The position numbers were made by a program, and so were the translations under genes. A DNA stretch of 64,000 bases from Naegleria gruberi (Eukaryota). The notes under the pieces are model-generated. The model saw nothing but the letters and a program-made list of their open reading frames with translations, did not search any database and was not told where the DNA came from. The stretch lies in NCBI GenBank assembly GCA_000004985.1, contig GG738849.1. The stretch is one strand, 5' to 3'. Below are positions 1 through 44,513 of the stretch, in pieces (position 1 is the stretch's first letter; each line of letters opens with the position of its first letter).

Positions 1-44
1 TATCTTTCGAATAATGTCCAAGTTGCAGTTTTATTACTATTCAA

Positions 45-2537
45 TTACAATTTATCACAATAATCAGTGTAGAGAGGAATTTCTTCCTTCAAGCCCTTTC
101 TTATTCTAACATCTTTGATGAGTTGGTTTGCTTTAGATTGAGGATTGTAAACATCATCTTGCATAACTTGCCAATGACTGAATCTAAATTGAGAAAATGT
201 TTGATTTTGAGATTCTTCTCTCAGTTTCTCGTCCCATCCAAAACTTTCAATCACAGGGAGGTAACCAGAAATGACCACAAGGGGAGATGGATTAATTATT
301 GTTGTGTTAATTATATTACCTCTTCTGTTAAAAATATCTCTGTAAACTGAACTTGTGAATGATTCATTGGATTGAACCTCAAAATGATACATTGGTTCTA
401 CTAATTTTGGTTCAGCTCTCAGTTGACTAGCGAGCATGAGTTTAGCGCTAACTCCAACCAATTGACCTGCTCCTCTGTGAATGGAATCGGCGTGCAAATG
501 ACAATCATGTAATTTGAAAAGAACACCTCTCATGACCTCATCACACAAACCACCCGAAGCAGTACTTATTTGAAAACCTATCGTTACATATTGCTGAATT
601 TCATTAAGATAGCTAGTTGATTTGGATGCATTGACGAGTATGTTGGTTCTAGAGTGTGTATCTGGGCCGAAACTCCATATATTCTTTGAAATAGTCTTGT
701 CCCATCCAAAATCATTTTCCATAATTTCAGCTATCTTTTCTTGTTCATCCATTGGAAATTGATCTCCACTTATTAATTCTATCAAGTCTTCACTAATAGG
801 TTCCGCTTGCATGTATAGACGGTTGTGTTTGTTGGGACTTTTCCTCATTAGCATTTCTTCACTAGGATAACTAGAAACAGTTTCATGAAAATTAACGAAA
901 TACGGTGATTTTTTGATCTGAATATCCTTTGTGAATTCTTGCAAATGACACGTTTCTAAATGGTATTCACTTTCTGCACCTAGAACACATTGTCCTGAAT
1001 CATTGAACTTGCATGATAAATTAACATTGCTCTGTATGAGTTGTTTCAAACGCTCAACAAAATTTGGCAAATCTGAAGGGTTGGTTGGCTCAACACTCAT
1101 CGAAACAATAGGACTCATATATTGTCTTATACCCTTAATTGGCATACATGCAACTCCACCTTCTTCTGTGAATGTGCACGATTTGATAAAATACTTATCC
1201 AAACCAACAATACCAATTATTGAGCCACAATACGCTCTATCAATACACTCAATGTTTGTACCAGATAGCAATAATAATCTTGCAGCACTTGTATGAAAAA
1301 CATCCTTCTTGGTTTTAAAGTTGGGGCCCAATATTCTAATTGTTGTCGATTGAGAGAAAGAACCTGAAAAGACACGAGCCAAAGCAATTGAATCACCACT
1401 GTATGTGCATTTTGGTGGTAACATCTTACTCACATACACAACCAATGGTCCATATGGATCACATTCCTTGATTCCAGTTGCATACGGATCTGTCAAGTCT
1501 TCACCAGTGTAGAGAATATCATATTTGGTTTTTTGAGCTTCCTTGGGAGAAGGCAAATGATCAATAATCATTTGAATGAGTGATTTCCGAAGAGGAAGAA
1601 ACTTTTTCATAATGACCTCGATGAGCTGTTTCGAATTTCCTTTCTTTTCCTCTCGAGAAAGGTGGATTAATAGTGTATCTAGAGTTTGTTCAAATCCAAC
1701 TGATAACATGCCTTGATCAGAGGGAATGTGGGCTCGAGCAAGATTGAAAATCTTAAAAATTGGTGCCAATATAAATTCAGAGAAAGTATGGTTCAATTGT
1801 TGACCTGTTGTGGACGAATAGGGTTGTCTTGTGAACTTTTTAATTGACCTGTCATAGTAATAATCTCCCCACAACTTTTTGATTAACTTTTCTCTTGAAA
1901 TGTTAAATTTTGAACTGTAGAATTGAGCAAAGTTATTGAGATTGAAAGCCCAACCCATCCTAGCAGAACCAAACACAACATTACAATCAACTGGATCAAG
2001 AAGATAACTATTCGATTCTTCATTGGAATATGCAGAAAGAGTGACATTAACAGACTCTATAATTCTAACAATAATTCGATAGCTTTCCTCCTCAGTCAAT
2101 TGTAACTCATTAATGAGACGGTCAATCTTGTTAATGAAAAGAATAGGTTTTACTCTTTCTTGTGCAACTTGTCTAACCAATGTTTGTGTTGGACTATGAC
2201 CCTCAACTGCATCTACAACAATGATAGTTCCATCACTAATATTCATTGCACTGACCGTTTGATAATTCATAAAAGCAGGACAATCAATCAAGTTGACCAA
2301 ATGAAGATCATCTTTTTTGGTTGGATTTTCATAAATCAAACTATAATCATTTGATAAATTATTCTCAATTTCATCATGATTTGCTTCCAAATCATCTGCA
2401 AACTTATTTTCTTCAATCAATTTCCGAGTTAGGGTTGATTTACCATGATCCACATGAGCAATGATACTAATATTTCGAATATTGTCATAATTTCGTAATA
2501 GATGATCAATCTTTTCTTTTCTATTGTTGTTGATCAT
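45..2537 (-). CDS. elongation factor-like GTPase 1 (EFL1/Ria1 family, 60S ribosome maturation)
   Basis: Continuous ORF (track 45..2597, 850 codons; the track start is GTG, the first ATG is MINNNRKEK at about 2537). Motifs seen: P-loop AHVDHGKST, G4 NKID, 'IIVVDAVEG' and 'WGDYY', which are characteristic of EFL1 rather than EF-2. TAA stop at 45-47. The G3 motif reads DCPAF instead of DxPGH, verified in the DNA (GAT TGT CCT GCT TTT). Confidence 0.8.
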   Translation of the reverse strand: MINNNRKEKIDHLLRNYDNIRNISIIAHVDHGKSTLTRKLIEENKFADDLEANHDEIENNLSNDYSLIYENPTKKDDLHLVNLIDCPAFMNYQTVSAMNISDGTIIVVDAVEGHSPTQTLVRQVAQERVKPILFINKIDRLINELQLTEEESYRIIVRIIESVNVTLSAYSNEESNSYLLDPVDCNVVFGSARMGWAFNLNNFAQFYSSKFNISREKLIKKLWGDYYYDRSIKKFTRQPYSSTTGQQLNHTFSEFILAPIFKIFNLARAHIPSDQGMLSVGFEQTLDTLLIHLSREEKKGNSKQLIEVIMKKFLPLRKSLIQMIIDHLPSPKEAQKTKYDILYTGEDLTDPYATGIKECDPYGPLVVYVSKMLPPKCTYSGDSIALARVFSGSFSQSTTIRILGPNFKTKKDVFHTSAARLLLLSGTNIECIDRAYCGSIIGIVGLDKYFIKSCTFTEEGGVACMPIKGIRQYMSPIVSMSVEPTNPSDLPNFVERLKQLIQSNVNLSCKFNDSGQCVLGAESEYHLETCHLQEFTKDIQIKKSPYFVNFHETVSSYPSEEMLMRKSPNKHNRLYMQAEPISEDLIELISGDQFPMDEQEKIAEIMENDFGWDKTISKNIWSFGPDTHSRTNILVNASKSTSYLNEIQQYVTIGFQISTASGGLCDEVMRGVLFKLHDCHLHADSIHRGAGQLVGVSAKLMLASQLRAEPKLVEPMYHFEVQSNESFTSSVYRDIFNRRGNIINTTIINPSPLVVISGYLPVIESFGWDEKLREESQNQTFSQFRFSHWQVMQDDVYNPQSKANQLIKDVRIRKGLKEEIPLYTDYCDKL

Positions 2538-2617
2538 GTTGTGATTTTCAAAAAGTACTGCAAACTCCTCCGAAATTGTGAATAATTGTGTGCACACAAG
2601 TTGAAGAGCTATTTTTT

Positions 2618-4096
2618 TTAATGCTTCAAATTCAAAATTGAATGATTTTTACACCACAGAACACAAAGAAATGAAAAATTGAAAAGTATTACAACTTTAT
2701 ATTCTTCATCATTAAAATCAGAAAGCTCCTCCTGATCAAATATGATATTATCCTCCTCATCGAGAATCAATTCTTCTTCATCTTCAATATCAAAATCTTC
2801 ATCTCTGTAGAACTCGACAACGTCATCTGCTTGCCACAAATTCTTGAAGAGCAATTTGTGGCTGAAACCTTTCATTTCAAAGTGGTTCTTCATTGTATCA
2901 AAGCTTTCTTCCAAAAGTTTGAGATTTTGATTGAGGAATTGACCGCTGACAGAAGAGTTTAGAGTTTCTTGGTATTGGGAAATGACTCTTGATATGGTTT
3001 CGTCTTTTCCAATGAGTTCTTGGTAGATTTCAATGGCATGTTTGACATTTTGTAATGCAAATTCAATGTTGGCTTTCAAACCTTCAAGGATGTAGGTCTC
3101 AGTTTCGAATATCATTAATTCTTTAGCTACATTTCTATCAGTACTATTTCTGTCTTCAAACAACTGACCAAGTTTCTTCATTGATTCGTTAATTTGTTGA
3201 ATAAATGTTTTGGAAGCTTCTTCTCTCAAATAAATGCATTGATTAGAAACGGAATCAATTCTTCTTAATAATCTTTCGAATATTATTCCAAGTTTCTCAT
3301 CTTCCCATTTAAAGGTACCAAATTGTTTAGATGGCTCATTAATAATTTTTTCTTTCATTTCCTTAATGAAAATACATGCATTCGGAAACATGCATTCTAA
3401 TCTTGCTCTCAAAATCTTTACAATAATTCTATTTTGACGTGTGGTCATAATTGTGATTCTTCTAAGCTTTGGATTGGCGATTTCACTCAAAGTTCCAGTG
3501 TTTAATCTAATGAATGTTTCTGGAATGACAACATGTTCAAAAACCGATATTTTTCTCATAATTTCATCTAAGGATAAACTACATTCCTCATTTAGAATGG
3601 TCAAATCAGAAACTTTCAGATTGGATGTATCTCTAATTGTCCATGGTGGATATTTTACAGTGATGGAAGAGCACAAACTGGACGATTCTTCAAAAAGCTC
3701 CAACTCGTCAATTCTGTTGAGAAAGAGTTTCTTTAGAGGTCTTTGATTTTTGTAGAATGAAAATTTGTTAATACCAAAATCTGTCAAATTTGAATAGTTA
3801 TTGGGATTGACACTTGTTAAATTTTGTTGATCAATGATATGTAATTTTTCCAAGCCATTGATTTTGCACTTTTTACAGAACTCGACCATGTCATTGGTGT
3901 CAATGATGGTAAGGGATTTGAAACATTTCACTATTTCTCTAGCAGATGTTCTATCCCAAACTCTTGCTTTTTCTTTAAATTCAATAGCATTACACTTATC
4001 AATGATGAGCTTGTTGATTTTGCTTTTTCTTGGATTTAACATTGAATGAATATCAGAATATTTCAAATTAATCTTGGAACTTTTCAAGCAAATCAA
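2618..4096 (-). CDS. F-box/LRR-like hypothetical protein with acidic C-terminal tail
   Basis: 492-codon ORF with cysteine-containing leucine-rich-repeat-like periodicity and a D/E-rich C-terminus. A same-frame 88-codon ORF (4097..4363) lies immediately upstream, separated only by one in-frame TGA at 4097-4099. The first ATG inside the 492-codon ORF is at about 4045. The 5' end is uncertain. Confidence 0.45.
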   Translation of the reverse strand: MICLKSSKINLKYSDIHSMLNPRKSKINKLIIDKCNAIEFKEKARVWDRTSAREIVKCFKSLTIIDTNDMVEFCKKCKINGLEKLHIIDQQNLTSVNPNNYSNLTDFGINKFSFYKNQRPLKKLFLNRIDELELFEESSSLCSSITVKYPPWTIRDTSNLKVSDLTILNEECSLSLDEIMRKISVFEHVVIPETFIRLNTGTLSEIANPKLRRITIMTTRQNRIIVKILRARLECMFPNACIFIKEMKEKIINEPSKQFGTFKWEDEKLGIIFERLLRRIDSVSNQCIYLREEASKTFIQQINESMKKLGQLFEDRNSTDRNVAKELMIFETETYILEGLKANIEFALQNVKHAIEIYQELIGKDETISRVISQYQETLNSSVSGQFLNQNLKLLEESFDTMKNHFEMKGFSHKLLFKNLWQADDVVEFYRDEDFDIEDEEELILDEEDNIIFDQEELSDFNDEEYKVVILFNFSFLCVLWCKNHSILNLKH

Positions 4097-4498: not shown

Positions 4499-6274
4499 AT
4501 GTTTGGAAAACTATTGCTCACTGTTTTCATCGTCATCTTTATGGCACAGGAAAGCAGCGGTTGCACTCTTCAGAATTGGCGATATGAAAAGAACACGTAT
4601 GGGAAGCTAACAGTTCAAGAGAATAAGAGCAACAAAACATACTTGTTCAATATTGTTGATAATCTCCAAATGTTACATGTCAGAAAACACACTGTCTTTT
4701 TGTCATTCTTTGATATATCCTACTTTGATCAGAAGATTAACATGAATTTGAGTGGAACATCAAATTATTTGGATGTCATTCAACAAGTGAAAGGATGTTT
4801 CGATACTTCCTTGGCTGAACTGTTCATTTGCTATGCCATTTCCAACAGAAGATTTGAATGCTTTTTAGTGAAGGAGCAAAGTATTGAACATCCAACCATT
4901 AAACAGCTCAATTACATCCCCTACTCGATTATCATTTTGATTCAATTTTCCATTTCCGTTTTAATAACAATTTATATGGGATGTTGTAATAAGAAAATTT
5001 ATGGTACAACTAAACAAACTCAGAAAAATACCAATCCAGAACCACAAACCAAGAAAAAACCCCTACAGAGGGAGAAGTCCACGCCGCCTTCAACAAACAA
5101 TGATGACATTGAACTAGATGAACAACAGGTCCAACAAACACATGAACATGGTGAGGATGATGGTGAGGATGATGCGGCTCAAGACGAAACAAATTTAATA
5201 GAAAGAACCACTACCTCTTCCACAGAACAAGATGAAAAACCTACCTCTTCCTTTTCCACTTTTTCCGTTGTTGTCTTGTTTTTAATATCAAGAACGCTAC
5301 GCCAGAAAATCCCTTTTGTGAGCAAGTTGAACGAAAACACTTTCACAGGAAAAAACATGTTTTTGTGGGTGGGCTGTTTTTGTGTTGGATGGTTTGTTTT
5401 TATGGAAGATTTTTTTCCAGAAACCATTATCCCCATCATTTGTGGAATAGTATTAGCAAAGCTTGTGGTGAGTTTGATTTTGGACTACACATCCAATGAG
5501 CGTTTAACAGAGTGGAGTGAAGTAATTTATTTTTTATGTAGGTGTATGATGGGTGCTATTTTTTTGATTGCAATTGTTATTTACATGATCACCAGAACAA
5601 AAAAATTTTACGGGTACAGTGAAAATATGATTGGTGAAAAATTAGTCTATTGAATTGATTTCTCTTCCTCCATTGTGATCATTATTGCTTCTTGTTTTAG
5701 TTGGCTAATTTATTCAGAATGGAATTCATATAATCATCAAGAAAATCCTTTTTTAAATGTCTTTAAAGACTTTATCCGCCAATCGCAAATCACTTCCACC
5801 TTATCTGGATTTTTCATTGTAATTGTAATTAGAGAAATATGTGAGGATTCATATATTTTGTACTCATTGGAACTAGTTAACCCTCTGGTAATCCCCTTAC
5901 TAATGATTATCGTTGAGGGTTACTTTTTTCATAAAATCAGTATAAAAATGCTTGTAACAGCAGAGGAAAAGTTGAGCAATAAGAATTACAATATGATGCA
6001 TGCAATGTATGAGTGCACAATAGATAACCTCGTCAAGCTGTTGGCCATTACATTATCTGTATGCTTATTGATAGTCATGGTTATTTTCTCTGTCTACCAG
6101 TTTAAACTCAAAGGAATGGAGTTTGTTAGTTCTCTCATAGTGGGTGCTCATGTTTCCATTCAGTTTTGGATGGATACTCATGAAGAAAGTTATAGTTCAG
6201 AAGTTTCTAAAACGGTTGAAAAATACTGCGCAGAAACCAACCATCATCATGATCAGATATTAAAATCCATCTAA
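4499..6274 (+). CDS. multi-pass membrane protein (signal peptide plus several TM helices), function unknown
   Basis: ATG at 4499 in an aaaaaaaaaATG context. ORF 4499..5653 and same-frame ORF 5675..6274 are separated by a TGA. A short GT..AG intron (donor at about 5614 or 5619, acceptor at about 5700 or 5716, T-rich polypyrimidine tract) joins them in frame. Both halves are hydrophobic and TM-rich. Confidence 0.45.
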
Positions 6275-7450: not shown

Positions 7451-8758
7451 CTAATAGCGGTGTAGAGCAAAATCTTTGAGGTATAATTGGATTGCCAATT
7501 TGGATGCTAAACTTTTACGTTTTCCACTCAACCAAGCACTAAAATTACATGGGTCAATATTAAAAATTTTACAAAACTCGTTTTGTGTTGAAGTCCAAGA
7601 CAATTTCCACAGTTGTATCAAATCAATATCATTCAGTTCCATAATATGTTCAGGCAATTCTCCTAAACTCGATATAACAAACTTCTTAACATCTTCTTTG
7701 GGTTTGTACACAATTGGTGTTGTTTTCGAGTCTGTTAAGAATAATTTTACAGACATTTCTGACGATAGACTTTCGTGTTTTCCTCTCAACCAAGCACTAA
7801 AATTACCTATGTCAATATTATAAACATTACAAAATTGTTTCTGTGATAATTTCCAACTTTCTTTAAAATACTGTATCAATAACGCAGTATTTAGATAGTC
7901 TACATCAATCAAACCGTGTCCTTCATCTTGCTTTTGTGATGCTATAAAGTTTAAATGTTGAAATAGAGGATCCAATTCAGATGAGTTTTCACAATAACAA
8001 AGAGAAATTTCATTCAACAAATCTTGCCATTGAATTTTTCTTCGTTTTCTTTCTGTAATTATTTCTACTAAATCAAGGGTGAGTTCAAAACCAGTGATGT
8101 ATTTAAATACTGGCTTTGCCAATTCAAAATGTTGAACATCTTGAATTAGAGAATACAAGCCAGAGTTTTCTAAAGGATATCCTGTTCTTTTCTCAAGAAC
8201 TTCTGAATAGGCATAATCGACAGATTCTTTTAGATAGTATTCTTGATCAGTTTTTGATTCAATGCATAGTTTCAAGTTATGAATGCAATCATAATAAAAA
8301 TCTCTAGAATTAATTCCCAATCGTTCTCTCACTATTAATTCCCAAATATTTCTAATATCCAGTCTCGATATTTTGATGGTGCTGGAATTACATATTTTCA
8401 CTAACAAGTGCAAACTATCCTGATAACTATACGAAGAACTGCACCATGGAAACCAAGGCTTTTCTAAACAAACTTCTAACATTCGCTTTTCATCATGGAA
8501 AATAACAAAAGACGAATGAAGAGAAAATAAACCACTTTTTAGAGTGAGAGAAAATTCTTGTTCCGACTGATCTTGTTCTTCCCTTAAATCACATTCAATA
8601 ATATTTCCATCCCGCTCAACTCTAAGCTCTTTCGCTGTTCCAAAGCGATAGAAAGTGAGAGTAACAGATTTGAGGCTCGTAGTTTTTTGTTTGATGCAGA
8701 GATGGGATGCTTCTTTGACCACTTTGTCAGCGGAACTGATTGAGCGTAACACAATCAT
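7451..8758 (-). CDS. hypothetical protein with two tandem C-terminal Cro/C1 (XRE)-like helix-turn-helix motifs
   Basis: ATG at 8758, TAG stop, 435 codons. The C-terminus has an internal repeat (…QKQFCNVYNIDIGNFSAWLRGKHESLSSEMSVKLFL… and …QNEFCKIFNIDPCNFSAWLSGKRKSLASKLAIQLYL…) that fits the XRE-type HTH pattern (Q.eF....i....fS.W..GKr.s......l). Confidence 0.6.
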   Translation of the reverse strand: MIVLRSISSADKVVKEASHLCIKQKTTSLKSVTLTFYRFGTAKELRVERDGNIIECDLREEQDQSEQEFSLTLKSGLFSLHSSFVIFHDEKRMLEVCLEKPWFPWCSSSYSYQDSLHLLVKICNSSTIKISRLDIRNIWELIVRERLGINSRDFYYDCIHNLKLCIESKTDQEYYLKESVDYAYSEVLEKRTGYPLENSGLYSLIQDVQHFELAKPVFKYITGFELTLDLVEIITERKRRKIQWQDLLNEISLCYCENSSELDPLFQHLNFIASQKQDEGHGLIDVDYLNTALLIQYFKESWKLSQKQFCNVYNIDIGNFSAWLRGKHESLSSEMSVKLFLTDSKTTPIVYKPKEDVKKFVISSLGELPEHIMELNDIDLIQLWKLSWTSTQNEFCKIFNIDPCNFSAWLSGKRKSLASKLAIQLYLKDFALHRY

Positions 8759-8911: not shown

Positions 8912-11263
8912 ATGGTTCCCGCCAAGGCAAACTTGTGGAAGCTTTCAAAAAAAATGAGCCCAAACCAAATGATCATTCAACCATTCAATCAATGTATCTA
9001 TATGATTCATCATGCCACAACTGATATTGAAGAATTTTACATGATTGATGCATCGGATGCTGATAATATTGTTAAACGCCTGATTGCAACAGTTAATTTA
9101 AACGATTTGGCTAATGTTTCAACAGAAAATGCTCCTATTTGTAGGCTTGAACAAGTCATTTTAGATTGGGAGAGTGATTTGATGAATCAACTTGTTGGAT
9201 CACAAAAATTAATCAGAGGTTTCGCCAAAACAGTCAAAAGAAGTGAAAATTACTGTTCTTCTTATCGTTCCTGTTTCGTATGGAATAGTGTGAACGATTT
9301 TGATGTGAAAAATATTGTTATTGCTGATATCAATGAAGATGGTATTTCATTTGTTGACGGTTTCATGCTCATGTCATATAATAGAGCTCCAAGTCTTGAA
9401 AAGAGTCAATCTGTTAATTCTCTCAAATTGGAACCATGCAACGAGATTACAATGCCACAATCAGATATCATGTCAAGAACGGAATCTGTTGCAATTGTTA
9501 TTCCTTGCTCAAATGTTATCAAAAGAGATTACTCACTGAATGGTTTTTTTGATGGAAAAGACAAGGTTTATTTATTCGATTTGAAGAGTGGAAAATTTGA
9601 CCTTTCAGTCACTGGTGTTTCATTTGGTGCCACTTTCGTGAATTCTTCTTGTGGAGTTTGTAATGTACCATTCTTGGAGGGTGAGAGATTAAGAGTCTTC
9701 TTGCTTCTAAGTTTTAGATTGTATGAAATTGTTTGGAAAGGAGAGGAAAATAATAGTGATCTAATCTTAATCAGACATTTGGAATGGATTGAAAGAATCA
9801 ATTCTGTCACAAGAATGGATAATTTTGGTTTATTGATTCAATCTAGGTCAAAAGATGGTACTCAATATTATGTCTATTGTCCACAACCTTATAATACAGA
9901 GAATTTGAAAAAGGAAGGGAAATTGATAGAATTACCAAAGAGTGTTTATGAGAATGTTACAGATATAGTGTACGCTCCTAAATCCAAGCGTCTCTTGTCT
10001 GTGAAAGATGTAAATCTTTCAAAATCACTCAGTTTGGAAGAAATTCAAGTATTACCATCAAACATAATCAAATCAATTTTCAATGAAGAAGAATATTTGG
10101 AAAAGTTAAAGTTTGACACTTCATTTAAAACATATCAACCAAGACTCATAACTGATGCATGTGAAGTGGTAACAACAATTCCCAATCATCCAAGAATTAG
10201 TCGAGCTTATCAAATTCTTGAAGGAAGACACAATGAAATTGAAATTGTTGCTGGTATTGGATGTAAGAATTATATTGACAAGTTGGGAGATTTAATTTCT
10301 AATGATTATGTAGAATTGAATATTGAGGATTTGGCTGATTACCTTGGTGCTCCAGTAATTTATGAACAATATTCTATTGTAGAATATACTTATTTTATCA
10401 AAGATATGGTTGATGGATTAAGATCTTCAAAAGCTATTGAATTTTCTCGTGTAACAAGAGGAGGAGGAGGAGGATATGGTTCCTCCTATGCTTACTTTAA
10501 TGATGATTTTTCGTCCCCAAAGTTTATTGGCATATTATCATGCAGACCAAAGCAACCAGAAGAAGAAGAAGATGATGAAATGGAGGATGAGGAAGAGAAA
10601 ACTGAAAAAGAGTACGAACAATTGTTCAGAACAAAAGAGTTCAAAGTTGAGAGTACTTCAATGGTTGTCATTGATCCATTTACAACAAACTCTGGCGTAA
10701 TCATAAAGAATGTAAGACCTGGTATTTGGAATTGGAAAACTACTCACAAATCCAAAGATCATGTGGATGGAGGTTATGAGGACCATTTTTTGACAGCTCA
10801 AATAGTTGCCATTCATCAAGATTATTATGAAGAATTAAGTTCTGATCCAAAACTTTGGTTAGTTCCAAACAATGTCTACAGAAAATTGGAGAGAAATCAC
10901 AAAGTTGAAAGGGATGAATACTATGATGATGAAATTGAGGGAGGATGGTTTGTTATGAAATTGGGTGTAGGGGTAGACGTTGCCATGGCTGGAATCTTTG
11001 ATGAAAAGTACTTTAATGATGAAAAATGTTTGGAATTGAAGAGAAAACCAAAATCCAAATTTGAAGCTTCTTGCAAGCTTTCGTTTAATTCAGATTGGCA
11101 AGATTACTTTTTCAAAAAGATGGAGCAAGATAACTATCCTTCAAAATTAGCAGCACCTTTTGGAATTATTACTTCAAGTGGATATGGAGATGGATGTTAT
11201 GCTTGTTTATTCAAGAAATCAAAAGGAGGAGATGTTATTGCTGTTCGTCTTGTATTTTGTTAA
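8912..11263 (+). CDS. hypothetical protein, C-terminal DUF4241-like domain (tentative)
   Basis: ATG at 8912, 783 codons, TAA stop. It has Gly-rich (GGGGGYG) and acidic (EEEEDDEMEDEEE) low-complexity tracts. C-terminal motifs 'GVGVDVAMAGIFDEKYF' and 'SSGYGDGCYACLF…GGDVIAVRLVF' resemble DUF4241. Confidence 0.6.
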   Translation: MVPAKANLWKLSKKMSPNQMIIQPFNQCIYMIHHATTDIEEFYMIDASDADNIVKRLIATVNLNDLANVSTENAPICRLEQVILDWESDLMNQLVGSQKLIRGFAKTVKRSENYCSSYRSCFVWNSVNDFDVKNIVIADINEDGISFVDGFMLMSYNRAPSLEKSQSVNSLKLEPCNEITMPQSDIMSRTESVAIVIPCSNVIKRDYSLNGFFDGKDKVYLFDLKSGKFDLSVTGVSFGATFVNSSCGVCNVPFLEGERLRVFLLLSFRLYEIVWKGEENNSDLILIRHLEWIERINSVTRMDNFGLLIQSRSKDGTQYYVYCPQPYNTENLKKEGKLIELPKSVYENVTDIVYAPKSKRLLSVKDVNLSKSLSLEEIQVLPSNIIKSIFNEEEYLEKLKFDTSFKTYQPRLITDACEVVTTIPNHPRISRAYQILEGRHNEIEIVAGIGCKNYIDKLGDLISNDYVELNIEDLADYLGAPVIYEQYSIVEYTYFIKDMVDGLRSSKAIEFSRVTRGGGGGYGSSYAYFNDDFSSPKFIGILSCRPKQPEEEEDDEMEDEEEKTEKEYEQLFRTKEFKVESTSMVVIDPFTTNSGVIIKNVRPGIWNWKTTHKSKDHVDGGYEDHFLTAQIVAIHQDYYEELSSDPKLWLVPNNVYRKLERNHKVERDEYYDDEIEGGWFVMKLGVGVDVAMAGIFDEKYFNDEKCLELKRKPKSKFEASCKLSFNSDWQDYFFKKMEQDNYPSKLAAPFGIITSSGYGDGCYACLFKKSKGGDVIAVRLVFC

Positions 11264-11357: not shown

Positions 11358-13592
11358 TTATGGTCCTTGATTAGTGACTGATTTGATGTATTCCTTCCAT
11401 TTTCTAGAATTATTAAATCTGTAATAGGAATCCATTAAATTTTTGTAAATTTCATAACTTAACGAACTGAATACTGCTGGGTTACAAAGATTTTCAATCA
11501 ATGGTTTCATTTCTTCCTCTTTTGTCAGATCAATATTTGGAAAATATCTTGTTTGTGAATCCTTCACAACTCTTTTAGGTAATTGATTTACCTTAATATT
11601 TTCCTGATTGAGTAAAATGAGTAATTCTCTATACTCTTTCAATTCACTATTGATCACCCTATTGGAAATGTTAACTTCAAATACTGAATCTCCCTCTGAA
11701 AGATATAATATTACCATTTCCTTAATTTTTGATATTTTAGATCTCAAATGACTTGCACTAATCTTCCTCAATAAATGTAAATCTTCATAAAAGAGTAAAT
11801 TCTCAATCGAATATTCATTTTTCAAGTATTGATAAAATAATTCTCGTTCCTTTTTGTGTAAAATTACATAGTCAATTGTAGCTGAGTTAATTGGAGAGGA
11901 TATTAATTGTTGAATATTCTCAAATACTATATCATTGGTATTGTCTGTTTGTTGGTTTCGTTTAGATTTATATGCAAGGTAATAATTCCACAATGTTCTT
12001 AGAATGGTAATTCCAGGATTGCCTGCAGAGCCACCAAGGAAATTCAATCCAAGAACAATGAACAAGTTTCCAATAAGATTAATTATTGGATTGTCAAAGT
12101 AGGGAGAAAGAAGAATGTAAATCAATAAGGAAAATCCACTTATTGTGAGAACACATGTACTTTCTATTCTATATACGAAAGGATCAGATTCATAATAAAT
12201 GTAAATGAAGAAATTCGAAGTCTTTTCTCCTCTTTCCGTATTGTTTCGTCTTTGTTTCTTATAATGGTAAAGAGAAATGAAAAAATCGCTGATTAACAGA
12301 ATTGGAATGACGAGAAATATTGCAATCGATAGTCCAGCATCCATGAAAAAGATTGCACTTCTATCCTCTTTTCTGCAATATCCACTATACGAATCCCAAT
12401 TATGGAAAAGTGAACTCCACTTGTCTGGCTTGTGACTTGCTATCTGAACACTAATCATAACATACCAAATAATTACACAAAGAGAAACGAAACCAATTTC
12501 TATAATTCTAAACTTGATGACTCTCTTTAAGAAATTCACCAATTTTCCCCTATTCGAAATTACATCAAGATCAGAATTTGACACGCCATCATCGAAATCC
12601 AATGCAATATCTTCATACAATGCATTTGCTGCTTCAATTTCAATGCTAGCATTCTTTCTTGAACTTCTCGCAGATAAAGGTCTCACTTGTGTTATATTCG
12701 AAACATCTGATGCTGATGATACATTCGTACTAGGTACAGAACTCAAATCAAGAGCCAAAACACCCTTCAAAGATTGTGAAGATCGAGTAAGGCTACTATT
12801 CGATCTCGACAATTCCAAATTAGAGTTGGAAGAAGTATCAGAAATTTTCTTATTCGAAAGGGCACTCGCATTCATCTTTTCAAATTGTTTCTTTTTAAAT
12901 TCTTCCATAGTTTTCACAATTGACTGTCTCATATTCCTAATGATATTCAGTAGTATGAATTTGGCTATCTGAATCGCATATAACGAAACACTTCCAATAA
13001 TTAAACCATAAATGACATATTCACCAATGAAACAGTAAACATTCTCAAAGGTTATGTAATTTCCTAACCATGTGGGTAATCCATTCGAATCTAGATTGTT
13101 CTTGTAGAAGGTTTGAGCATCAAGAGATGGATTAATTGACCTTTCGAATATAAATTGATTCCAATAACTTTCAAAATAAACTCGGATGAATGGAATTGTG
13201 TCGAGTGAAGCAGGTAAATGACAAATAACATTAATTGTAGTCAATACAAACGAAATAAACAACTTTGACTTGAGTGGTTCATAATCTCGCAATGCAAATA
13301 TGCAAATAAACAAAAAACTGTCAAAAATCAACGCAACACAAGCCCTGATAGGTATCAACACGGAAGGGAGGAATTTACTCGAGCTGGTCATGACAATTTC
13401 CGCCTCTGCCTGTGTTAAATTACTTGTTATATTGCTCAAAAGAATTGCAAACTCTGTCGTGTTGTAATTTGTTAAAGTGACATCTGAAGGTGGTTCCAAT
13501 TGACTGGCAGAGTTGACAAAGCAAAGAAAGAGGCACAATACTAGCAAGAGAAATTTAACACCAGCAGCAGCAGGTGCTTTTCTGTGGTGCAT
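11358..13592 (-). CDS. multi-TM receptor-like protein with C-terminal RGS domain (7TM-RGS type)
   Basis: ORF 11358..13622; the first ATG (MHHRKAPAAAG…, signal-peptide-like) is at about 13592. At least seven hydrophobic segments are followed by an RGS domain (…ERELFYQYLKNEYSIENLLFYEDLHLLRK…). TAA stop. Confidence 0.7.
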   Translation of the reverse strand: MHHRKAPAAAGVKFLLLVLCLFLCFVNSASQLEPPSDVTLTNYNTTEFAILLSNITSNLTQAEAEIVMTSSSKFLPSVLIPIRACVALIFDSFLFICIFALRDYEPLKSKLFISFVLTTINVICHLPASLDTIPFIRVYFESYWNQFIFERSINPSLDAQTFYKNNLDSNGLPTWLGNYITFENVYCFIGEYVIYGLIIGSVSLYAIQIAKFILLNIIRNMRQSIVKTMEEFKKKQFEKMNASALSNKKISDTSSNSNLELSRSNSSLTRSSQSLKGVLALDLSSVPSTNVSSASDVSNITQVRPLSARSSRKNASIEIEAANALYEDIALDFDDGVSNSDLDVISNRGKLVNFLKRVIKFRIIEIGFVSLCVIIWYVMISVQIASHKPDKWSSLFHNWDSYSGYCRKEDRSAIFFMDAGLSIAIFLVIPILLISDFFISLYHYKKQRRNNTERGEKTSNFFIYIYYESDPFVYRIESTCVLTISGFSLLIYILLSPYFDNPIINLIGNLFIVLGLNFLGGSAGNPGITILRTLWNYYLAYKSKRNQQTDNTNDIVFENIQQLISSPINSATIDYVILHKKERELFYQYLKNEYSIENLLFYEDLHLLRKISASHLRSKISKIKEMVILYLSEGDSVFEVNISNRVINSELKEYRELLILLNQENIKVNQLPKRVVKDSQTRYFPNIDLTKEEEMKPLIENLCNPAVFSSLSYEIYKNLMDSYYRFNNSRKWKEYIKSVTNQGP

Positions 13593-13936
13593 TATTTTTG
13601 AATATTTTCTGCTATCCTTCAATTGTCTTTTTGGGTGTTAAATATTCATGCAAGTCAACTTTGAAAAATCTCTTGAAAAGGTTTTCGCCCCAAATTTGAA
13701 AAATGGTGGTGAGGAATTGGAACTCTGTATCATTTTTCACACACTGACATTAAATTAAACAAAAAACATTCGATTGCATTTGCCGACATTTCCTTAGACG
13801 ATAAAACACAATTTTTTGATAAACATCTACAAGCTTCTCATTATTCACAAAATATCATCTCGAGCATGTGTAGGAGAAATGAATTTAGCTCAAATATTCA
13901 TACATCTCGTATTTGATAAAGAAATATTATTCGAAT

Positions 13937-15679
13937 TTAAATTGAAAATGCTGAATTGATTGTACTGAAATAGATTTCCTGTTTTGCTTTTCTAAACATT
14001 TCTGGATATTCAGAATTCATTCTTGTCATCATTTCATTCATATCCAATAAACAATGAACTCTCAATTCTTCTAATAATTCATCAATTTTTGTTTCATTCT
14101 TTTCTTTAATTAGGAAAAGCAGCTCATTGTGAAGAGAATCAATTTTGGGAATGTTTAGTTCGAGAGGAGAATTTTTTGAGAGAAAGGTTTCTAATATATT
14201 GTTGGCTATTTTCATTCGAAATGTCATTCGTCTACTTTTTCTGTAATTTTGAATAGTGTCAAAACAGAGAACTGGTTCAGAACTGTAGGAACGTCTTGAA
14301 AAATCTAAAATTGCATTAAAGGTTTCTCTTTCGGATAACAGTTTCTCATAGAGACTTGGTTCTTCATGTCCATTTCCAGATAATCCATTCATTTTCCTCT
14401 CTTGATAAATGGCTCTAATAGTTGGAATGGTGATTAATATCACAAGTTGACCAATACTATAAATTGACAAAATCATCTGAATTGGAAAAACATAATCAAC
14501 CAGATTCGTCAAAACTGAAACTCTAGGAAGTGTAAAACTGAGAATTACACATAAAATCATCAAGATTGTGGTAATTGATGTTTCAATCTTAATGAACCAA
14601 GTATCCCTTTCTGAAATTACTACCAAAATTAGAAATATTAAGGTAATCAATCCATAGAATGAATAGAGTGCAACGTAGAGGGTCATTGAATTGGGTCTAA
14701 CTTTGCAACCATATTGGAAATTATCAAATCCTGAACTAAGGTAAGTATCAGAGAAATTCTCTGGTCCAAAAATTTCTAATAATCCAATAATTAACCACAA
14801 GAGAGAATGTAGACTAAACAGAGATAGTTCAATAATAAATAGGAATTTGTTACTGAGAAGAAACTTGTACAGGATCAATAATCGTTTCTGATTTTTGGTA
14901 AATGGCTCTTTCAGTGATAGTGAACTTTCTCCACTTTCTTGAGAAATTAAATCATTCACCACTTTTTGAACTTGTGGACTAATTACATTACTCACAGTAG
15001 GAGTAGGACCGCTTGAATGCTGAGTTAATAGACGAAATAATCGATTCCTTATCACGAATGCAAAACAAGAATAAAGTGATGGAAGAGTCATGGCCCAACA
15101 CATGTTTATTCCCATGAAGGAGAATAAAAAACAGGGAAATAAGTCTCTTCCAATAAGCCATCGCAAACATGGTATGATAACATGTATGGAACTGGCGAGA
15201 ATTGTCGATGAAATCCAATAAATGCCTCTAGATTGAATGTGTCCACTGTTTCGTTTAAGAAAAACGAAAATGAAAGTGAAGAATAGTATAGGAAGAAAGA
15301 TGATAAGGAGAAGAGTCGAAAGAATAGGAATAATGATGGTATCGGGACAAACACTTGTTTCATTAGAAAGACGAAGTGGACTAAAGTCCCTCAGAGGTAT
15401 TCCCAATTCGAACAACAATGGGTCGCATAGAAGAGACAGAGTTGAGTTCATTCTTTTTTTTGTTTTGGAAAGAATTATCTCTCTTTCGGTGGTATTAAAT
15501 TGATGAAAGGCGTAAAATTGTCTAAGTAATATCAATATAAGGATCTGAAGGATTGATTTGTGGTGAGATAATGGTTTGCATATTGTTTGCCTCTTCCTTT
15601 TGCTTATCATTTCAATCATCAACATGTGTTCTGCAGAACGAATAAACTTTTTCCAATTATTCAAATTTTCAACAATCAT
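13937..15679 (-). CDS. multi-TM protein with C-terminal RGS domain (tandem paralog of the upstream gene)
   Basis: ATG at 15679, 580 codons, TAA stop. It has a TM-rich body and a C-terminal RGS-like segment (…FDTIQNYRKSRRMTFRMKIANNILETFLSKNSPLEL…). Same orientation as, and directly adjacent to, the 11358..13592 gene. Confidence 0.65.
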   Translation of the reverse strand: MIVENLNNWKKFIRSAEHMLMIEMISKRKRQTICKPLSHHKSILQILILILLRQFYAFHQFNTTEREIILSKTKKRMNSTLSLLCDPLLFELGIPLRDFSPLRLSNETSVCPDTIIIPILSTLLLIIFLPILFFTFIFVFLKRNSGHIQSRGIYWISSTILASSIHVIIPCLRWLIGRDLFPCFLFSFMGINMCWAMTLPSLYSCFAFVIRNRLFRLLTQHSSGPTPTVSNVISPQVQKVVNDLISQESGESSLSLKEPFTKNQKRLLILYKFLLSNKFLFIIELSLFSLHSLLWLIIGLLEIFGPENFSDTYLSSGFDNFQYGCKVRPNSMTLYVALYSFYGLITLIFLILVVISERDTWFIKIETSITTILMILCVILSFTLPRVSVLTNLVDYVFPIQMILSIYSIGQLVILITIPTIRAIYQERKMNGLSGNGHEEPSLYEKLLSERETFNAILDFSRRSYSSEPVLCFDTIQNYRKSRRMTFRMKIANNILETFLSKNSPLELNIPKIDSLHNELLFLIKEKNETKIDELLEELRVHCLLDMNEMMTRMNSEYPEMFRKAKQEIYFSTINSAFSI

Positions 15680-15702: not shown

Positions 15703-18700
15703 TTAACTGAGGTGGAAGGCGTTTTGACCCTCTTGAATTGCCTTGTACAATTGTTCCTTCATGATTGTCTCTGAGGAGTACTCTGGTAATTTCAAGTAGT
15801 TTGTACAGGTCATGACAGATGGAAGGTACATATCTGAGGTCTTGCCAGCATCTGCCTTCTTCAAAACAATAGTCAACTTTGGTCTAAGACTCATAATACC
15901 TCCTGAAGGCAATCTTGGAGCTCCAGTTACAAATCTTAAAAAGTCTCTCTTCTCTGAAGGTGTCATTTGAAGAAGAATCTTGAAGAATGTCTTAATTACT
16001 CTAGAAGAGTGAGTATAACCATGGTCACATTTTGTTGCTTCAACCAATAATTGCTCAGTCCACTCTTCATCAGCACCAACAAAAATATCACTCAACTCCT
16101 TGATGGAGAAACATTTCAGAGATGCAATGGAATTGTGTCCCATTACTGAATTGAATCCATTTCTGATCATTTCCACTTGTTGAATAATACCGTCATGGAG
16201 AATGGTATTAGTAACCAGTCTAAGGTATTCCTCGAGATTTTGCAGGGTAACCTCCCTATCTGACCCTCCTTCTACCAACTCAATATCTGTTCCCATTACA
16301 GTAAAAGACAGACATAAATCCTCTAACCTTGTTTTACCATCATCTCCAAATGTAATTTCTAACAAGTGAGCAGCTGTCTCTTGATCAGATAATGATTTGG
16401 ATTTAATCTCATTAACCTTTTGACACATCTTTTGTAATTTACAGAATTGTTGGTAAAGTATTGGATCTATTGTTTCAATATCATAGAAAGTAAGCTTTTC
16501 TCCTCTTAAAAGTTTGAGTAAAGCATCAGAGAATGGAATGTCTAATACTCTTCCATCATAAATGGCTCTTCCCAAAAATGTTCCAATAAAGTAATAAAGC
16601 TCTGCATCTTTTTCTGGAAGCTTTCCATCGACAAGCCTCTTCAATCTAGGATAAAGCCCTGTCTTGGTTTCAACAAGTCTGTCAAACTTGTCTGCTTCTT
16701 TTTGTTCACCTACAAATTCATCTCTGAAAATAGTCAATCCACTCTGTTGTAAAGCTCTGGAAACCAAGTTATAACACTCTACAGTTGGACCCAAACCTGT
16801 ACCAATCTCATTTTCAAAAATAAATTCAACGATTCTATCTGTATCCAAGTTAATAAGACCTTTGTATGCGCTTTGTAAAATATTTGGAGATCTGGACAGT
16901 TTGATCTTTTGTTTTCCTATTTGAATCAATCTTGCCTTTCTGTCTCTGGATTTGAAATATCTATTTTGTATGGTTAAAATTGCTCTTGCAATACCCTTGG
17001 TTGTCAAGTCAAAGTATAATTGTCTTACATCAAAAGTGAATAAAAATCCATAGTCCTCGATCAAAAGTTTTAGCCAATGAGGGAAACAGTTTCCAAAAAG
17101 ATAATATGGATCTTGAATAGATCTTACAATCTTTGAAGCCAATTTAGGGTTAAGGAATATCTTGGATGAAAGTAATACTCTCTTCATGCCTCCAGTGTGA
17201 GGCAATACAATAGCTAACTTGCTAATAAAGTTCATAATCTTAAGAAGCTCGAGAATATCAATAGCATCCTTGTCAATACCTTCCTTGATTAACGTATCCT
17301 TATCACTCGTATGACTGAAAATGTGAGTGAGAAGAACATCTTCTTTAGATTGTAATAGTTCATTTGGTTCACTCATTGTAGCGTCTTTCACTTCTTCAGT
17401 TAAATCAGAAATCTTGAAAGACAAATTTTGAGTAGTATCACCCAAGTTGAGACCAGATGGATGGTTATGAGTACCCTTTCTGTAAAAAACTTCAAATAAT
17501 GTCATGTTAGGGTTGAGAACCTCACCATTCAAAATAATTGAGTATTGTTTGGATGGTTTATCATCCTCCATAACTGCCTTGTCTTCAAGTAAGTAAGAAG
17601 TATCTTCATCTGATTTTGGAGTCTCTACTTCAATATTACCAATATTTCCGATAAATTCGTCATCATCATCTCTTTCATTAATATGGAAATAGCTGAAATC
17701 TGGAATTTGAATGGTTTGAGCTTCGGTAGATTGCTCTTTTTCATCACTGTAATTATCTTGCAAATAGTTAATGACATCTCGTACTTTACAGAGAGAATTT
17801 GCTTGCAATAGAACTACCTTCTTGTTTTCATCATTTGTCATGGATAACTTGAAATACTTTAAAAATTTACGAAGAACTGATCCTACACCAGTTAAAAGTG
17901 TGATAGACTCAGAGTAGTTAACATTCAGGTTTTCTACAGAGTTGAAAACATCAATTAGCTTTCTTACAAACTCGGAAAGATATGTTGGATTGTCATTAGC
18001 GTTTGATACTGAAAGAGAAATTTCTAAATCATTACTTTGCGAGAAATTCTTTGATTTACGAGACTTCTCCTTTCCTGCAGGGATGGATTGATCGAAAATT
18101 TGAGCAAAACGGTAAACTCTCGATTTTCTATCGTGTGTATCAGCTGAAAGATATTCAATAAGCGTTGGAATGATATTACTATTGATAATTTCAAAGTAGG
18201 TAGCAGAGTCATCAATAATCAACAAATCTCTCAATTCTGTCAATAGTTTTTCTTCCTCTGATTTGCAAGTAAGCAACTGTTTACCAATAGCCTGCAAGGC
18301 AATAAAACCAGAACTTTCCATTTTCATATCTTTTGTTCTGGTAATGTAATCCTTGTAAAAAAGTTGAGCTTTAGTTACAGCATACACTGCAAGCTCATTA
18401 TTCTTGAATGATGCCTTCTTGCTTCTTTCAGTGTACAATCTTGAGGTTTTTGGTATTTTTGGATATTCAACATGAGGATGAACCCAAGCAACAGAAATTT
18501 TTTCAGGGTCTTCATACTTTTCCTCTTCCTGTGGGGTCTCTCCTTCCTTGACTTCTTGAGGTGGTTGATTTTCTCTATTCTTAATTCTTTCATTCTTTTC
18601 TATTGCTTGCTTTTTCTGATTTTCTTCTTTCTCTTTTCTTTCCTTTTCAGCTTTTTCATAGGCAGCAATAGTATTCTTTTTCATCTTTTCTAACATCAAC

Positions 18701-20636
18701 TCTTCCTTTGATTTTTCATCCATTCCTGAAATATTTTTGATTCTATAGGTGACACCTTCTCGCAAGAAATAGAGATCAAAAATGTCTGGTAACTTTTTGG
18801 AAAGCATTTCACAAATTTGCAATGCTGTTGTAACTTTACAAATGTCATCGCTGGAAAGAAGGGAGGCCAAAAATGTTGAAAATGGAATATTCTTCAATGT
18901 TTCTGTTAACATAGTAGCAGAAGAATGGTAAACAACAGTACCAATAATCTGCAATACTAAATTATTAACTGAGTCATTTTGACTTGATGAAAGCAAGTTA
19001 ATTAGTGGTTCTAATAATACATCAGTTGCTGTTTGTAACAAGATAGGCTCTTTTTCAAGAAGTGACTCTATTTGAGAGTCCTGTACAGTATCAGTTTCTG
19101 GTAGTGATTGGTCATTTGGTGGTTTTACCCCGGTCATCTTTACCATTAGCTTTTTTCTATTGGAGTGAGAGAGTTGACAAACTAATTCTTCATTTCTAGG
19201 CATCTTTGGAAGTAGTGCTAGTATAAAGTACATTATATCTAAAAAGCATTCATGAAGTCCTCTTTCATGAAGCAGTAAACCAGGTATTAAATTAATCAAA
19301 CCTTTGGAATAAATCTCTTTGGCAATTTCATTATTTGAAGAAACACTCTTCAACATTTTTAAAATCAAATTGAGTGAATTCTTTGAAGTTTTTTCATTAG
19401 AAATAATATCAATAGCCTGATCAATTAGAGAACAAGAGTTAATAAGTTTTGACAATTTTTCAGATTCCTTCAAGAATGGATGAGTTATTCTTGTTAAACT
19501 AACAATTGCATTTTCAACCATCAATGGATCTGATGCTGTTAAAAATCTTGAAATATTTGGAAGAATGTCACAAACTAGTTCAAAATCTGCTTTTCCAATA
19601 TTTTTAGATAAATTGGCAGCAATTCTTAAAATTTTCTTTTGCATATCTACACCAAAGAAATCAATATATGTTAATGAAGCCATTAAAACGCCTTCTTTGA
19701 GAAGTGCAGCACCATATTGATGAGAAAGGTGTTCAATAATTTGTAAAGATATTTCTGCCAAATCGATATACTCAATAACGAGTACCTTTGAGGAAATAAT
19801 TGAAATACCTCCATTAGAGGAAACAAATGAGCACGATGCAGGATAAATGTCAATCATATTTAACAATGTTCTAGCAGCAAATACCATCAAATCATATCTA
19901 TCGTCACTATTAGCCATAATGTTTAAAAGTTCTGGAATGAATCTATCTACTCCCATTCTACTGAGAGCTTGTTCATTAGATATGGAAACTATATTGCACA
20001 AATCTGAAACTGCATCGAATTGCTTTGTTGGATCACAATAGTCTTTCAATCCTTGCAGAATTTCTTCCATTCTTTCTGGAGGCAAATTACCACCTCTCAC
20101 GAATTGATTTCCATAATTTTGAATAATGTTCTCAAGAGTAAGCCCGCCAGTAGAGGTAAATGTTTGATCCGAATTTTGTTCGCTCATTTCTTCTTCGTCG
20201 CTAGAGTCTTCTTGATCAGAATCTATGTAGCTATTTGTTATTGTTGTTGTGCTTTGGTGATGATTGCTTTCTCTGCTGGTTGAACTCGCTTCAGCAATTG
20301 TTGTATTTTTAGAATGTGTTTTTTTTTGTTTGAAGGTTTTCGGAAAGAAGCCTTTGAATGATTTCACTACTCGCCAACTAGAATTTCCAGAAGTTGGTTT
20401 TAATGTTGTTGCTGTATTGTTGTTATTATTACTATTAACAATATTAGAACTAGTTGTTGTGTTTCTTGAATTATTATTTACAGATGAAGAGCTGATTGTG
20501 ATTTGTTGATTTGAAAGCCTTGTTTCCTCTTGATGACTTTTTGATCTAAAAATAGTTTGATTGTCTGATGTTGAAGGTGTTGGTGTAACAGTGATGCTTT
20601 CAGATTGTTTTCTTTAATGTTATTCATGATAAACAT
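15703..20636 (-). CDS. HECT-domain E3 ubiquitin ligase (TRIP12/UFD4-like)
   Basis: Main exon 15703..20431 (1554-codon ORF in the track) ends with the canonical HECT C-terminus (…LPSGGIMSLRPKLTIVLK…NAFHLS). It has an N-terminal armadillo-like region and a K/E-rich coiled segment. The main ORF has no ATG for about 80 codons upstream. I infer a 5' exon 20482..20636 (ATG at 20636) and a 50-nt GTAAAT..TAG intron (20432..20481) that joins it in frame. TAA stop. Confidence 0.8.
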
Positions 20637-26024: not shown

Positions 26025-26211
26025 ATAATCACATTGTATATTGGACACCGAACGAATATCAAACTTTTACAATTTTAGAGATTTGTAAAACACAAGAAAT
26101 TGAATTCACATAGGTTTTTATTCTTTTGTTGAAATCTAAAAAGATTTCGTTGGAATAATTTATTTGAAATTACATAAATGCAACAAAAATTTCAGGGGCT
26201 CGCCACGTTTA

Positions 26212-26282
26212 CCGTCTCGGGAGGAATCGAACCTCCGTCAATGGATTCAAAGTCCACTATGCTACCATTACACCACGAGACG
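26212..26282 (-). tRNA. tRNA-Gln (anticodon UUG)
   Basis: 71-nt cloverleaf: acceptor CGTCTCG/CGAGACG, D-arm GTGT..GCAT, anticodon loop CTTTGAA, T-arm GGAGG-TTCGATT-CCTCC, discriminator G. Identical to the copies at 44443 and 45008. Confidence 0.85.
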
Positions 26283-26403
26283 AGCACATTATTTATATCA
26301 ACACCCCCAAGTGCTTAAATACTCTTCCATTAAGGGGATATCGTTTTCAAGCTGTTTTTCAACACTCTCCGAATTTTTGATCATTTAAATCAATTAGAAA
26401 AAT

Positions 26404-44397: not shown

Positions 44398-44442
44398 CTA
44401 TGTATTTAAGGAGAGTGAAGTACTAAGATAAATTAATGTGCT
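44398..44442 (+). promoter_or_regulatory. conserved tRNA-Gln 5' flank (TATTTAAG … ATAAATTAATGTG)
   Basis: The same two AT-rich blocks sit at the same spacing upstream of all three tRNA-Gln copies. On the coding strand of the other two they lie at 26283..26340 and 45079..45135. Likely upstream Pol III elements (TATA-like). Confidence 0.45.
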
Positions 44443-44513
44443 CGTCTCGTGGTGTAATGGTAGCATAGTGGACTTTGAATCCATTGACGGAGGTTCGATT
44501 CCTCCCGAGACGG
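44443..44513 (+). tRNA. tRNA-Gln (anticodon UUG)
   Basis: Identical 71-nt sequence to the other two copies. Followed by a conserved trailer TAAACGTGGCGAGCCCCTGAAATTTT ending in a T-run. Confidence 0.85.

Follow-up and report, generated by a model that had tools for sequence, protein, structure and literature searches.

A divergent elongation factor 2 paralog of Naegleria gruberi with a dismantled GTPase centre, probably a pseudo-GTPase

The window analysed here, a stretch of 64,000 nucleotides (nt) of contig GG738849.1 from Naegleria gruberi (GenBank assembly GCA_000004985.1), contains close to its beginning a complete, intronless coding sequence (CDS; 45..2537, minus strand) for a divergent paralog of the eukaryotic elongation factor 2 (eEF2), as delimited by open reading frame (ORF) and translation (830 amino acids (aa), followed by a stop codon at 45-47). 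In this window copy, the nucleotide pocket and the tip that reaches the decoding site are kept, and the elements for gamma-phosphate sensing and catalysis are removed. The reading we prefer, to which we assign a probability of roughly 0.6, is that a duplicate of a heterolobosean eEF2-like paralog, specific to the N. gruberi lineage, has turned into a pseudo-GTPase; its product is probably a non-catalytic, ribosome-related protein kept by selection. Few residues in biology are as strongly conserved as the catalytic His of translational GTPases.

The locus is already known (100% identity to XP_002681727.1 / D2V235_NAEGR of N. gruberi NEG-M, here P0001, annotated as 'elongation factor 2'), and its pseudo-GTPase nature appears to be unreported. 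The mechanically delimited ORF covers 45-2597. Its biological start was placed at the ATG at 2535-2537, and the protein read from there aligns with its homologues starting at residue 1. G+C content (32-37%) and the intron-poor, tightly packed ORFs of the window are consistent with the N. gruberi genome. At the G3 motif, where DxPGH is expected, the protein reads DCPAF (D85 C86 P87 A88 F89; 2271..2285, minus strand), encoded by GAT (2283-2285), TGT (2280-2282), CCT (2277-2279), GCT (2274-2276) and TTT (2271-2273). An earlier note on this DNA had given exactly these minus-strand codons, albeit with a span of 2270-2285, in which base 2270 already belongs to the codon of Met90; its statement that Gly and His of G3 are replaced by Ala and Phe in an otherwise intact ORF is borne out by translation and alignments. 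The motif has lost the gamma-phosphate Gly as well as the catalytic His, but keeps the Mg-coordinating Asp85. DCPAF lies inside the Pfam domain GTP_EFTU (E 5e-27) and aligns column for column with the DxPGH of all homologues. D[SC]PGH was found in 178 of 180 fetched eEF2-family proteins (172 DSPGH, 6 DCPGH), the exceptions being one aberrant long model and the window protein, the sole one with DCPAF. The same note had allowed for a distinct non-catalytic family that conserves PAF; no such family emerged, PAF being present only in the window gene and its 99%-identical allele described below.

The other nucleotide-binding motifs, all on the minus strand, fall into two groups. Fully intact is the P-loop (G1), AHVDHGKST (residues 27-35; 2433..2459), which occupies invariant columns in alignments A1-A3 and was also recovered by motif scan. 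The guanine-specificity motif NKID (G4; residues 136-139; 2121..2132; alignment and motif scan) is likewise intact, and the G5 region GSA (residues 190-192; 1962..1970) keeps the G190 and S191 that are invariant in A1-A2. Of switch I, by contrast, the alignments leave a degenerate remnant (residues 38-63; 2349..2426) with deletions of 8 aa and 3 aa, in which RGITIKS has become ENNL---S, such that the G2 threonine is lost together with the universally conserved D38, A44, G45, G, R, I, T, I and K. This remnant is the lowest-confidence stretch and the only disordered part of the model predicted with AlphaFold2 (AF2), blocks within residues 41-60 reaching a predicted local distance difference test score (pLDDT) of 65 and 51. 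The rest of switch II (residues 90-99; 2241..2270) is rewritten in the alignments from HVDFSSEVTAALR to FMNY--QTVSAMN; directly after G3, HVDFSSEV thus reads FMNY--QT, and the universally conserved D91, F92, S, E93, V94, L98 and R99 are lost. The earlier description of the rest of the G domain as intact therefore holds for P-loop, NKID and Ser191 of G5, but not for the two switches, with the deletions in switch I, the loss of the G2 Thr and the rewriting of switch II. Catalytic residues are lost (G3 Gly and His, G2 Thr) and the fold is kept, the core of the G domain being confidently predicted by AF2. With P-loop and NKID kept and Gly and His of G3 lost, a protein that would bind GTP or GDP but be unable to hydrolyse GTP is the most reasonable expectation from the motifs; the note had predicted GTP binding with impaired hydrolysis.

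The uneven distribution of the losses is also evident from universally conserved columns (n=152), defined as those at least 97% conserved in 171 canonical eEF2s and, in addition, invariant in ten heterolobosean paralogs. The window protein has lost 35 of the 152. In the G domain, 21 of 62 are lost, all of them within residues 38-120, followed by domain III (6 of 15) and domain V (4 of 14), in both of which the changes are mostly conservative, whereas losses are few in the G'' insert (1 of 17), domain II (2 of 22) and domain IV (1 of 19). In G'', II and IV, the diphthamide loop included, the sequence has remained near the family consensus.

Concerning its affiliation, the window gene falls into the eEF2 branch of the EF2 family rather than into EFL1 or Snu114. 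Compared by phmmer with all PDB chains, the protein matches eEF2 best (608 bits, E 2e-181) in a single alignment over residues 8-830, whereas Snu114 reaches 416 bits and EFL1 (5anb) 260 bits in 4 fragments; in a local phmmer comparison, eEF2 scores 634 and Snu114 350 bits. The Pfam domains found are GTP_EFTU, EF-G_D2 (domain 2), EFG_III, EFG_IV and EFG_C, and the Pfam EFL1 domain PF25118 yielded 18.8 bits against a cut-off of 30.9, with no significant stretch in the window protein. The AF2 model (mean pLDDT 86, predicted template modelling score (pTM) 0.70) has the eEF2 fold: Foldseek places eEF2 first (template modelling score, TM, 0.75-0.78) and Snu114 second (0.63), and EFL1 is absent among the best 50 matches. 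The protein exhibits the five-domain architecture G-G''-II-III-IV-V with end-to-end similarity to eEF2. The loop at the tip of its domain IV, HADSIHRGAGQ (residues 682-692; 462..494, minus strand; motif scan), conforms to the diphthamide loop pattern HxDxxHRGxGQ and keeps the diphthamide-acceptor His687, and the C-terminus ...YCDKL is like the ...YYDKL of eEF2. With 830 aa, the protein is shorter than EFL1 (about 1100), and it possesses neither the EFL1 insertions nor an N-terminal extension. Snu114, which has an acidic N-terminal domain and about 970 aa, was rejected on the bit scores and the missing extension. The assignment to EFL1 (Ria1) made by the earlier note is unsupported because scores, fold, Pfam domains, diphthamide loop and C-terminus all point to eEF2, and length and tree position agree with this rejection; because the gene is not EFL1, the proposed mechanism of eIF6 release with SBDS does not apply either. 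G1, G4 and G5 are present, but the G2 Thr and the DxPGH of G3 are missing from the set of eEF2 GTPase motifs, which makes the window gene a paralog derived from eEF2 rather than a working eEF2 translocase.

Three kinds of eEF2-type gene exist in N. gruberi: a canonical eEF2, eEF2-like copies of 854 aa, and the window copy. The canonical one (XP_002674553.1, P0122/P0188; 837 aa, DCPGH) is at least 90% identical to the eEF2 of N. fowleri and N. lovaniensis, and since the genome possesses it, the window copy is an extra copy. The 854-aa kind is represented in N. gruberi NEG-M by four near-identical copies on several scaffolds (P0002, P0182, P0183, P0185) with DCPGH and intact switch I, and both features are also found in a 246-aa fragment of an eEF2-like paralog (P0184). 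The window copy shares 59-61% identity with the 854-aa copies. In the neighbour-joining (NJ) tree, it forms a sister pair with the 854-aa copy (100% bootstrap), on a branch of 0.405 as compared to 0.132 for its sister, and both lie inside a Naegleria/Willaertia paralog clade (100%) that is separate from the canonical eEF2s, that of N. gruberi included. Thus P0122/P0188 group with canonical eEF2s and the window copy groups with heterolobosean paralogs, i.e., it is no orthologue of canonical eEF2. An orthologue of the window copy was not found in N. fowleri or N. lovaniensis; the copy arose by duplication after N. gruberi had split from these two species. The earlier note had suggested looking in the genome for a second EFL1 or an eEF2-like paralog with PGH; the search covered the eEF2-like part, which was answered positively by XP_002674553.1 and the four 854-aa copies. 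Within the 64-kb window itself, tblastn detected no second eEF2-like gene.

The clade to which both copies belong is a fast-evolving group of eEF2-like paralogs that exists beside canonical eEF2 in Naegleria, Willaertia, Acrasis and environmental relatives (P0002-P0011). Its members include N. gruberi XP_002676641.1 and three near-identical sequences, N. fowleri FDP41_008200, N. lovaniensis C9374_014705, Willaertia ABK040_000356 and Acrasis kona; the last species and several environmental sequences possess related paralogs beside a canonical eEF2. This family appears to be uncharacterised. For N. gruberi, Atkinson 2015 (PMC4342817) mentions in passing 'several versions of ... eEF2' and calls them 'highly divergent'. 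The diphthamide loops of two PGH-bearing members read HSDSSHRNAGQ (P0003, N. lovaniensis) and HPDSNHRNAGQ (P0005, N. fowleri), such that Asn replaces Gly two residues after the diphthamide His, a position equivalent to codon 717 of Chinese hamster ovary (CHO) EF-2. According to the title of Foley 1992, cited in PMC10748335, a mutation at this codon blocks diphthamide synthesis, and that review describes EF-2 mutants of this kind as highly toxin-resistant. P0003 and P0005 may accordingly be toxin-insensitive eEF2 paralogs in bacterivorous amoebae, and, on the rather unlikely reading of a recurrent pseudo-GTPase class given further below, PGH-bearing heterolobosean paralogs, some of them with this Asn, could serve as toxin-insensitive back-up translocases.

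Since its duplication, the window copy has evolved considerably faster than its sister. The Tajima test counts 168 unique changes in the window copy and 30 in the 854-aa sister (p = 1e-22); the acceleration amounts to about 5x overall and ranges from 5- to 10-fold in most domains, with domain IV the least affected (about 2.5-fold). A second allele from an independent assembly (P0181, on contig L001 of the ENA metagenome ERZ929261) is 99% identical and keeps both DCPAF and the switch-I deletion. Selection was measured as pN/pS (non-synonymous over synonymous polymorphism) between the window gene and this allele; the two are separated by 17 coding substitutions (9 non-synonymous and 8 synonymous; pN 0.0045, pS 0.0157, pN/pS 0.29; binomial P 0.013 compared to a neutral expectation of 79.5% non-synonymous). 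Three further differences are indels of 3, 3 and 6 nt, all of them in frame and all in the remnants of the switches: two are located in the switch I remnant, whereas the 6-nt one, with SS present in L001, is located in switch II. A neutral simulation, in which substitutions with the genomic base composition were introduced until 168 amino-acid changes had accumulated (2000 runs), resulted in a mean of 13 stops, and in 0 of the 2000 runs did the ORF stay open. Because of the open ORF, the pN/pS of 0.29 and the in-frame indels, the gene appears to be under relaxed but real purifying selection, and its maintenance by selection rather than as a pseudogene has moderate support, the sample of 17 substitutions being small. 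The L001 contig itself comprises 2645 nt and spans window positions 23-2652, extending beyond the CDS by 115 nt on the upstream and 25 nt on the downstream side; its last 15 nt or so depart from the window sequence, and it is transcript-sized, which was not counted as evidence of expression.

Two explanations of the unusual motif carry next to no weight. An error of sequencing or assembly in the reference genome, which the earlier note had named as a possible refutation, has in its favour the rarity of the motif and nothing else; it would have to produce three nucleotide substitutions together with several deletions of whole codons in frame, a pattern that errors do not show, and it is excluded because the independent allele, assembled from another sample, carries the same DCPAF and the same switch-I deletions. 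Similarly negligible is the view that the gene is the EFL1 (Ria1) orthologue with impaired GTPase, linked through SBDS to the release of eIF6 from the pre-60S subunit: common membership in the EF2 superfamily and the weak, sub-threshold Pfam match would speak for it, but the fragmentary EFL1 alignments, the missing insertions, the eEF2-type loop and C-terminus, and the nested position among eEF2-type paralogs (100% bootstrap) contradict it. Improbable, if somewhat less so, is a GTPase that is still active through a different catalytic arrangement, in which another residue or a group supplied by the ribosome or by a partner replaces the His, as the earlier note had itself suggested as an alternative. 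Nucleotide and Mg binding are plausible with P-loop, Asp85, NKID and G5 intact; however, the G3 Gly, the G2 Thr and most of switch I are gone as well, no conserved replacement residue is evident, and in Ski7 a change of His to Ser alone accompanies absent GTPase activity (PMC4933942).

The competitor that has to be taken seriously is a redundant duplicate that is turning into a pseudogene: constraint would have been lifted from one of at least 5 eEF2-like copies, its GTPase centre would have been the first part to decay, and a still open ORF would encode a protein without function. We regard it as possible but distinctly less probable than a selected pseudo-GTPase. It would account for the multi-copy state of the paralog in N. 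gruberi, for the roughly 5-fold acceleration in all domains, for the loss of 35 universally conserved positions, some of them outside the G domain, and for the restriction to one species, and no evidence for expression of the window gene was found. Neutral decay is, however, difficult to reconcile with an ORF that remained intact where about 13 stops are expected, with the allele-level pN/pS and with three indels that are all multiples of 3, nor does it predict that G1, G4, G5, domain II and the tip of domain IV are preserved and the switches ablated. Several observations nevertheless weigh against the pseudo-GTPase reading. The pN/pS estimate rests on only 17 substitutions; every domain is accelerated; and the conservative losses in domains III and V would also be expected from a general relaxation of constraint. 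No orthologue is present in the other sequenced Naegleria species, so that long-term retention cannot be demonstrated, and direct expression or protein evidence for the window gene was not found, the metagenome contig being transcript-sized but of unverified nature. Finally, ribosome binding, nucleotide binding and physiological role are deduced solely from the conservation of motifs. Because of the small sample and the missing expression evidence, a duplicate in a late stage of decay is still a serious rival.

The hydrolytic water of translational GTPases is brought into position against the sarcin-ricin loop by the G3 His; binding of the gamma-phosphate and Mg2+ is the task of the G3 Gly and the G2 Thr, which also drive the switch. 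If the window protein is a pseudo-GTPase, it would presumably still bind a guanine nucleotide (GDP or GTP), judging from the intact P-loop, Asp85, NKID and G5, but would be unable to sense the gamma-phosphate or to hydrolyse GTP on the sarcin-ricin loop, and no GTP/GDP conformational switch would be expected. Lacking hydrolysis and switch, it should therefore not turn over or cycle as a translocase. Most likely, it would dock in the factor-binding or A site of the ribosome via domains II and IV, because the ribosome-facing domains are those best conserved. A protein docked in this way would be a non-cycling occupant, which might park and protect idle ribosomes or compete with active eEF2. By analogy, ordinary eEF2 occurs on dormant 80S ribosomes together with SERBP1/Stm1, according to the entry titles of solved structures, and such occupancy would be a role without need for hydrolysis. 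Less likely, the protein could act as a decoy for factors that recognise eEF2; a decoy for, e.g., diphthamide-directed ADP-ribosylating toxins is speculative.

The neighbours of the eEF2-like gene in the window are unrelated or without Pfam match, and no operon-like or synteny signal was found. Three tRNA-Gln(UUG) genes are found within about 19 kb (26211-26283, minus; 44442-44514, plus; 45007-45079, minus), two of them convergent and only about 500 bp apart. An 839-aa ORF (50972-53491, plus) equals eEF2 in size but is unrelated to it; its product has a Ras/Roc-type small GTPase domain at residues about 412-572, with ankyrin repeats behind this domain. A TRIP12-like HECT E3 ubiquitin ligase of 1554 aa (15703-20367, minus), a 783-aa protein with a C-terminal DUF4241 (8912-11263, plus) and a prolyl oligopeptidase (58523-60658, plus) show no functional link to the eEF2-like gene. 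Six long ORFs (384-754 aa) had no Pfam match at E <= 1e-5; five of them are on the minus strand (2618-4096, 7451-8758, 11358-13622, 13937-15679 and 40355-42481) and one is on the plus strand (4499-5653). The eEF2-like gene is preceded, at a distance of only 80 nt and on the same strand, by the ORF at 2618-4096, whose 3' end is overlapped by the 5' end of L001.

Eukaryotic eEF2-type proteins with degenerate GTPase motifs are not confined to N. gruberi. A HMMER scan of 1.84 billion cluster representatives, followed by motif extraction guided by hidden Markov models (representatives P0201-P0339), gave 131 representatives covering G3, 87 with PGH and 44 without; these counts should not be read as frequencies, because divergent sequences are over-represented after clustering at 50% identity. 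Among the 44, many have the full length of about 790-880 aa with a degenerate G1, G2 or G3; NKxD is usually and HxDxxHRGxGQ often kept. They include proteins of Tieghemostelium lacteum (KYR02430.1), Dictyostelium discoideum (KAM9958618.1), Entamoeba marina (KAL7712479.1), Arcella intermedia (A0A6B2KY08, a Trinity transcript, hence expressed), Paramecium tetraurelia (XP_001433631.1, with a counterpart in P. octaurelia), the chytrid Cladochytrium replicatum (KAI8807393.1) and Willaertia magna (KAL9645348.1), and all seven score far higher against canonical eEF2 than against Snu114-like sequences. A published description of GTPase-degenerate eEF2-type proteins was not found in the searchable literature. 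In an NJ tree that includes them, the window copy is still placed next to its sister with PGH, and the others occupy long unresolved branches; because this sister has PGH, the loss in the window copy is independent of theirs. It is a tentative and rather unlikely idea that eEF2-derived pseudo-GTPases form a recurrent, undescribed class of ribosome-associated proteins in free-living, mostly bacterivorous or encysting microbial eukaryotes, with the Naegleria copy as a young case, shortly after its GTPase was lost, that would lock onto idle 80S ribosomes for their hibernation or protection, or would serve as a decoy. Such a class may span Naegleria, Willaertia, dictyostelids, Arcella, Entamoeba, Paramecium and a chytrid. 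In the decoy variant, the intact diphthamide loop could soak up bacterial ADP-ribosylating toxins or other effectors directed at eEF2.

As a young eEF2 duplicate without switch I, G3 Gly and catalytic His, but with nucleotide pocket, ribosome-facing domains and reading frame kept, the window copy would, if the pseudo-GTPase reading is true, constitute a natural experiment in the conversion of a translocase into a non-catalytic ribosome ligand, and the degenerate proteins of several unrelated protists suggest a wider, unexplored class. If it is a decaying duplicate instead, the finding is an ordinary one; its importance would rise if expression and ribosome binding were shown, or if recurrent eEF2-derived pseudo-GTPases proved to be a functional class. 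An annotation risk is also corrected: the gene was filed as 'elongation factor 2' and read as EFL1, and it could act neither as a translocase nor as an eIF6-release factor. In the EF2 family, we know only of ancient duplicates (EFL1, Snu114) in other jobs, and both have kept the GTPase centre.

With canonical eEF2, the window copy shares the five-domain architecture and the length, and the two sequences are about 40% identical over their whole extent; it also has the G'' insert, the tip loops of domain IV with the diphthamide His, and a C-terminus in ...DKL, whereas the deleted switch I, the change of PGH to PAF, the rewritten switch II and the much faster evolution set it apart. Its direct relatives are the heterolobosean paralogs, whose clade signatures DEIEKGITIKS and EGCR[GS]QTETV were present in the ancestors; all other members keep G1-G5 including DxPGH, such that the loss is restricted to the window copy, which furthermore is without their Ser-rich insert in domain II. 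The other GTPase-degenerate eEF2-type proteins differ from it by different motif losses, some being without the P-loop Lys or the diphthamide His, and none of them has PAF.

EFL1/Ria1 and Snu114, ancient eEF2 duplicates recruited to non-translocation roles (PMC4342817), are similar to the window copy in possessing the EF2-family domain set. Unlike it, they keep PGH, comprise about 970-1120 aa, carry family-specific insertions or an N-terminal domain, and are without the diphthamide loop. Concerning the loss of catalysis, a parallel is offered by Ski7, a paralog of translational GTPases related to yeast Hbs1/eRF3, in which the catalytic His of G3 is likewise replaced, here by Ser; it binds guanine nucleotide, has no GTPase activity and presumably works on ribosomes in a non-cycling manner (PMC4933942). 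Despite this likeness, Ski7 belongs to the EF1 family, has an ordered GTP-type conformation and carries an extra N-terminal region that binds exosome and Ski proteins, whereas the window copy belongs to the EF2 family and has lost switch I as well.

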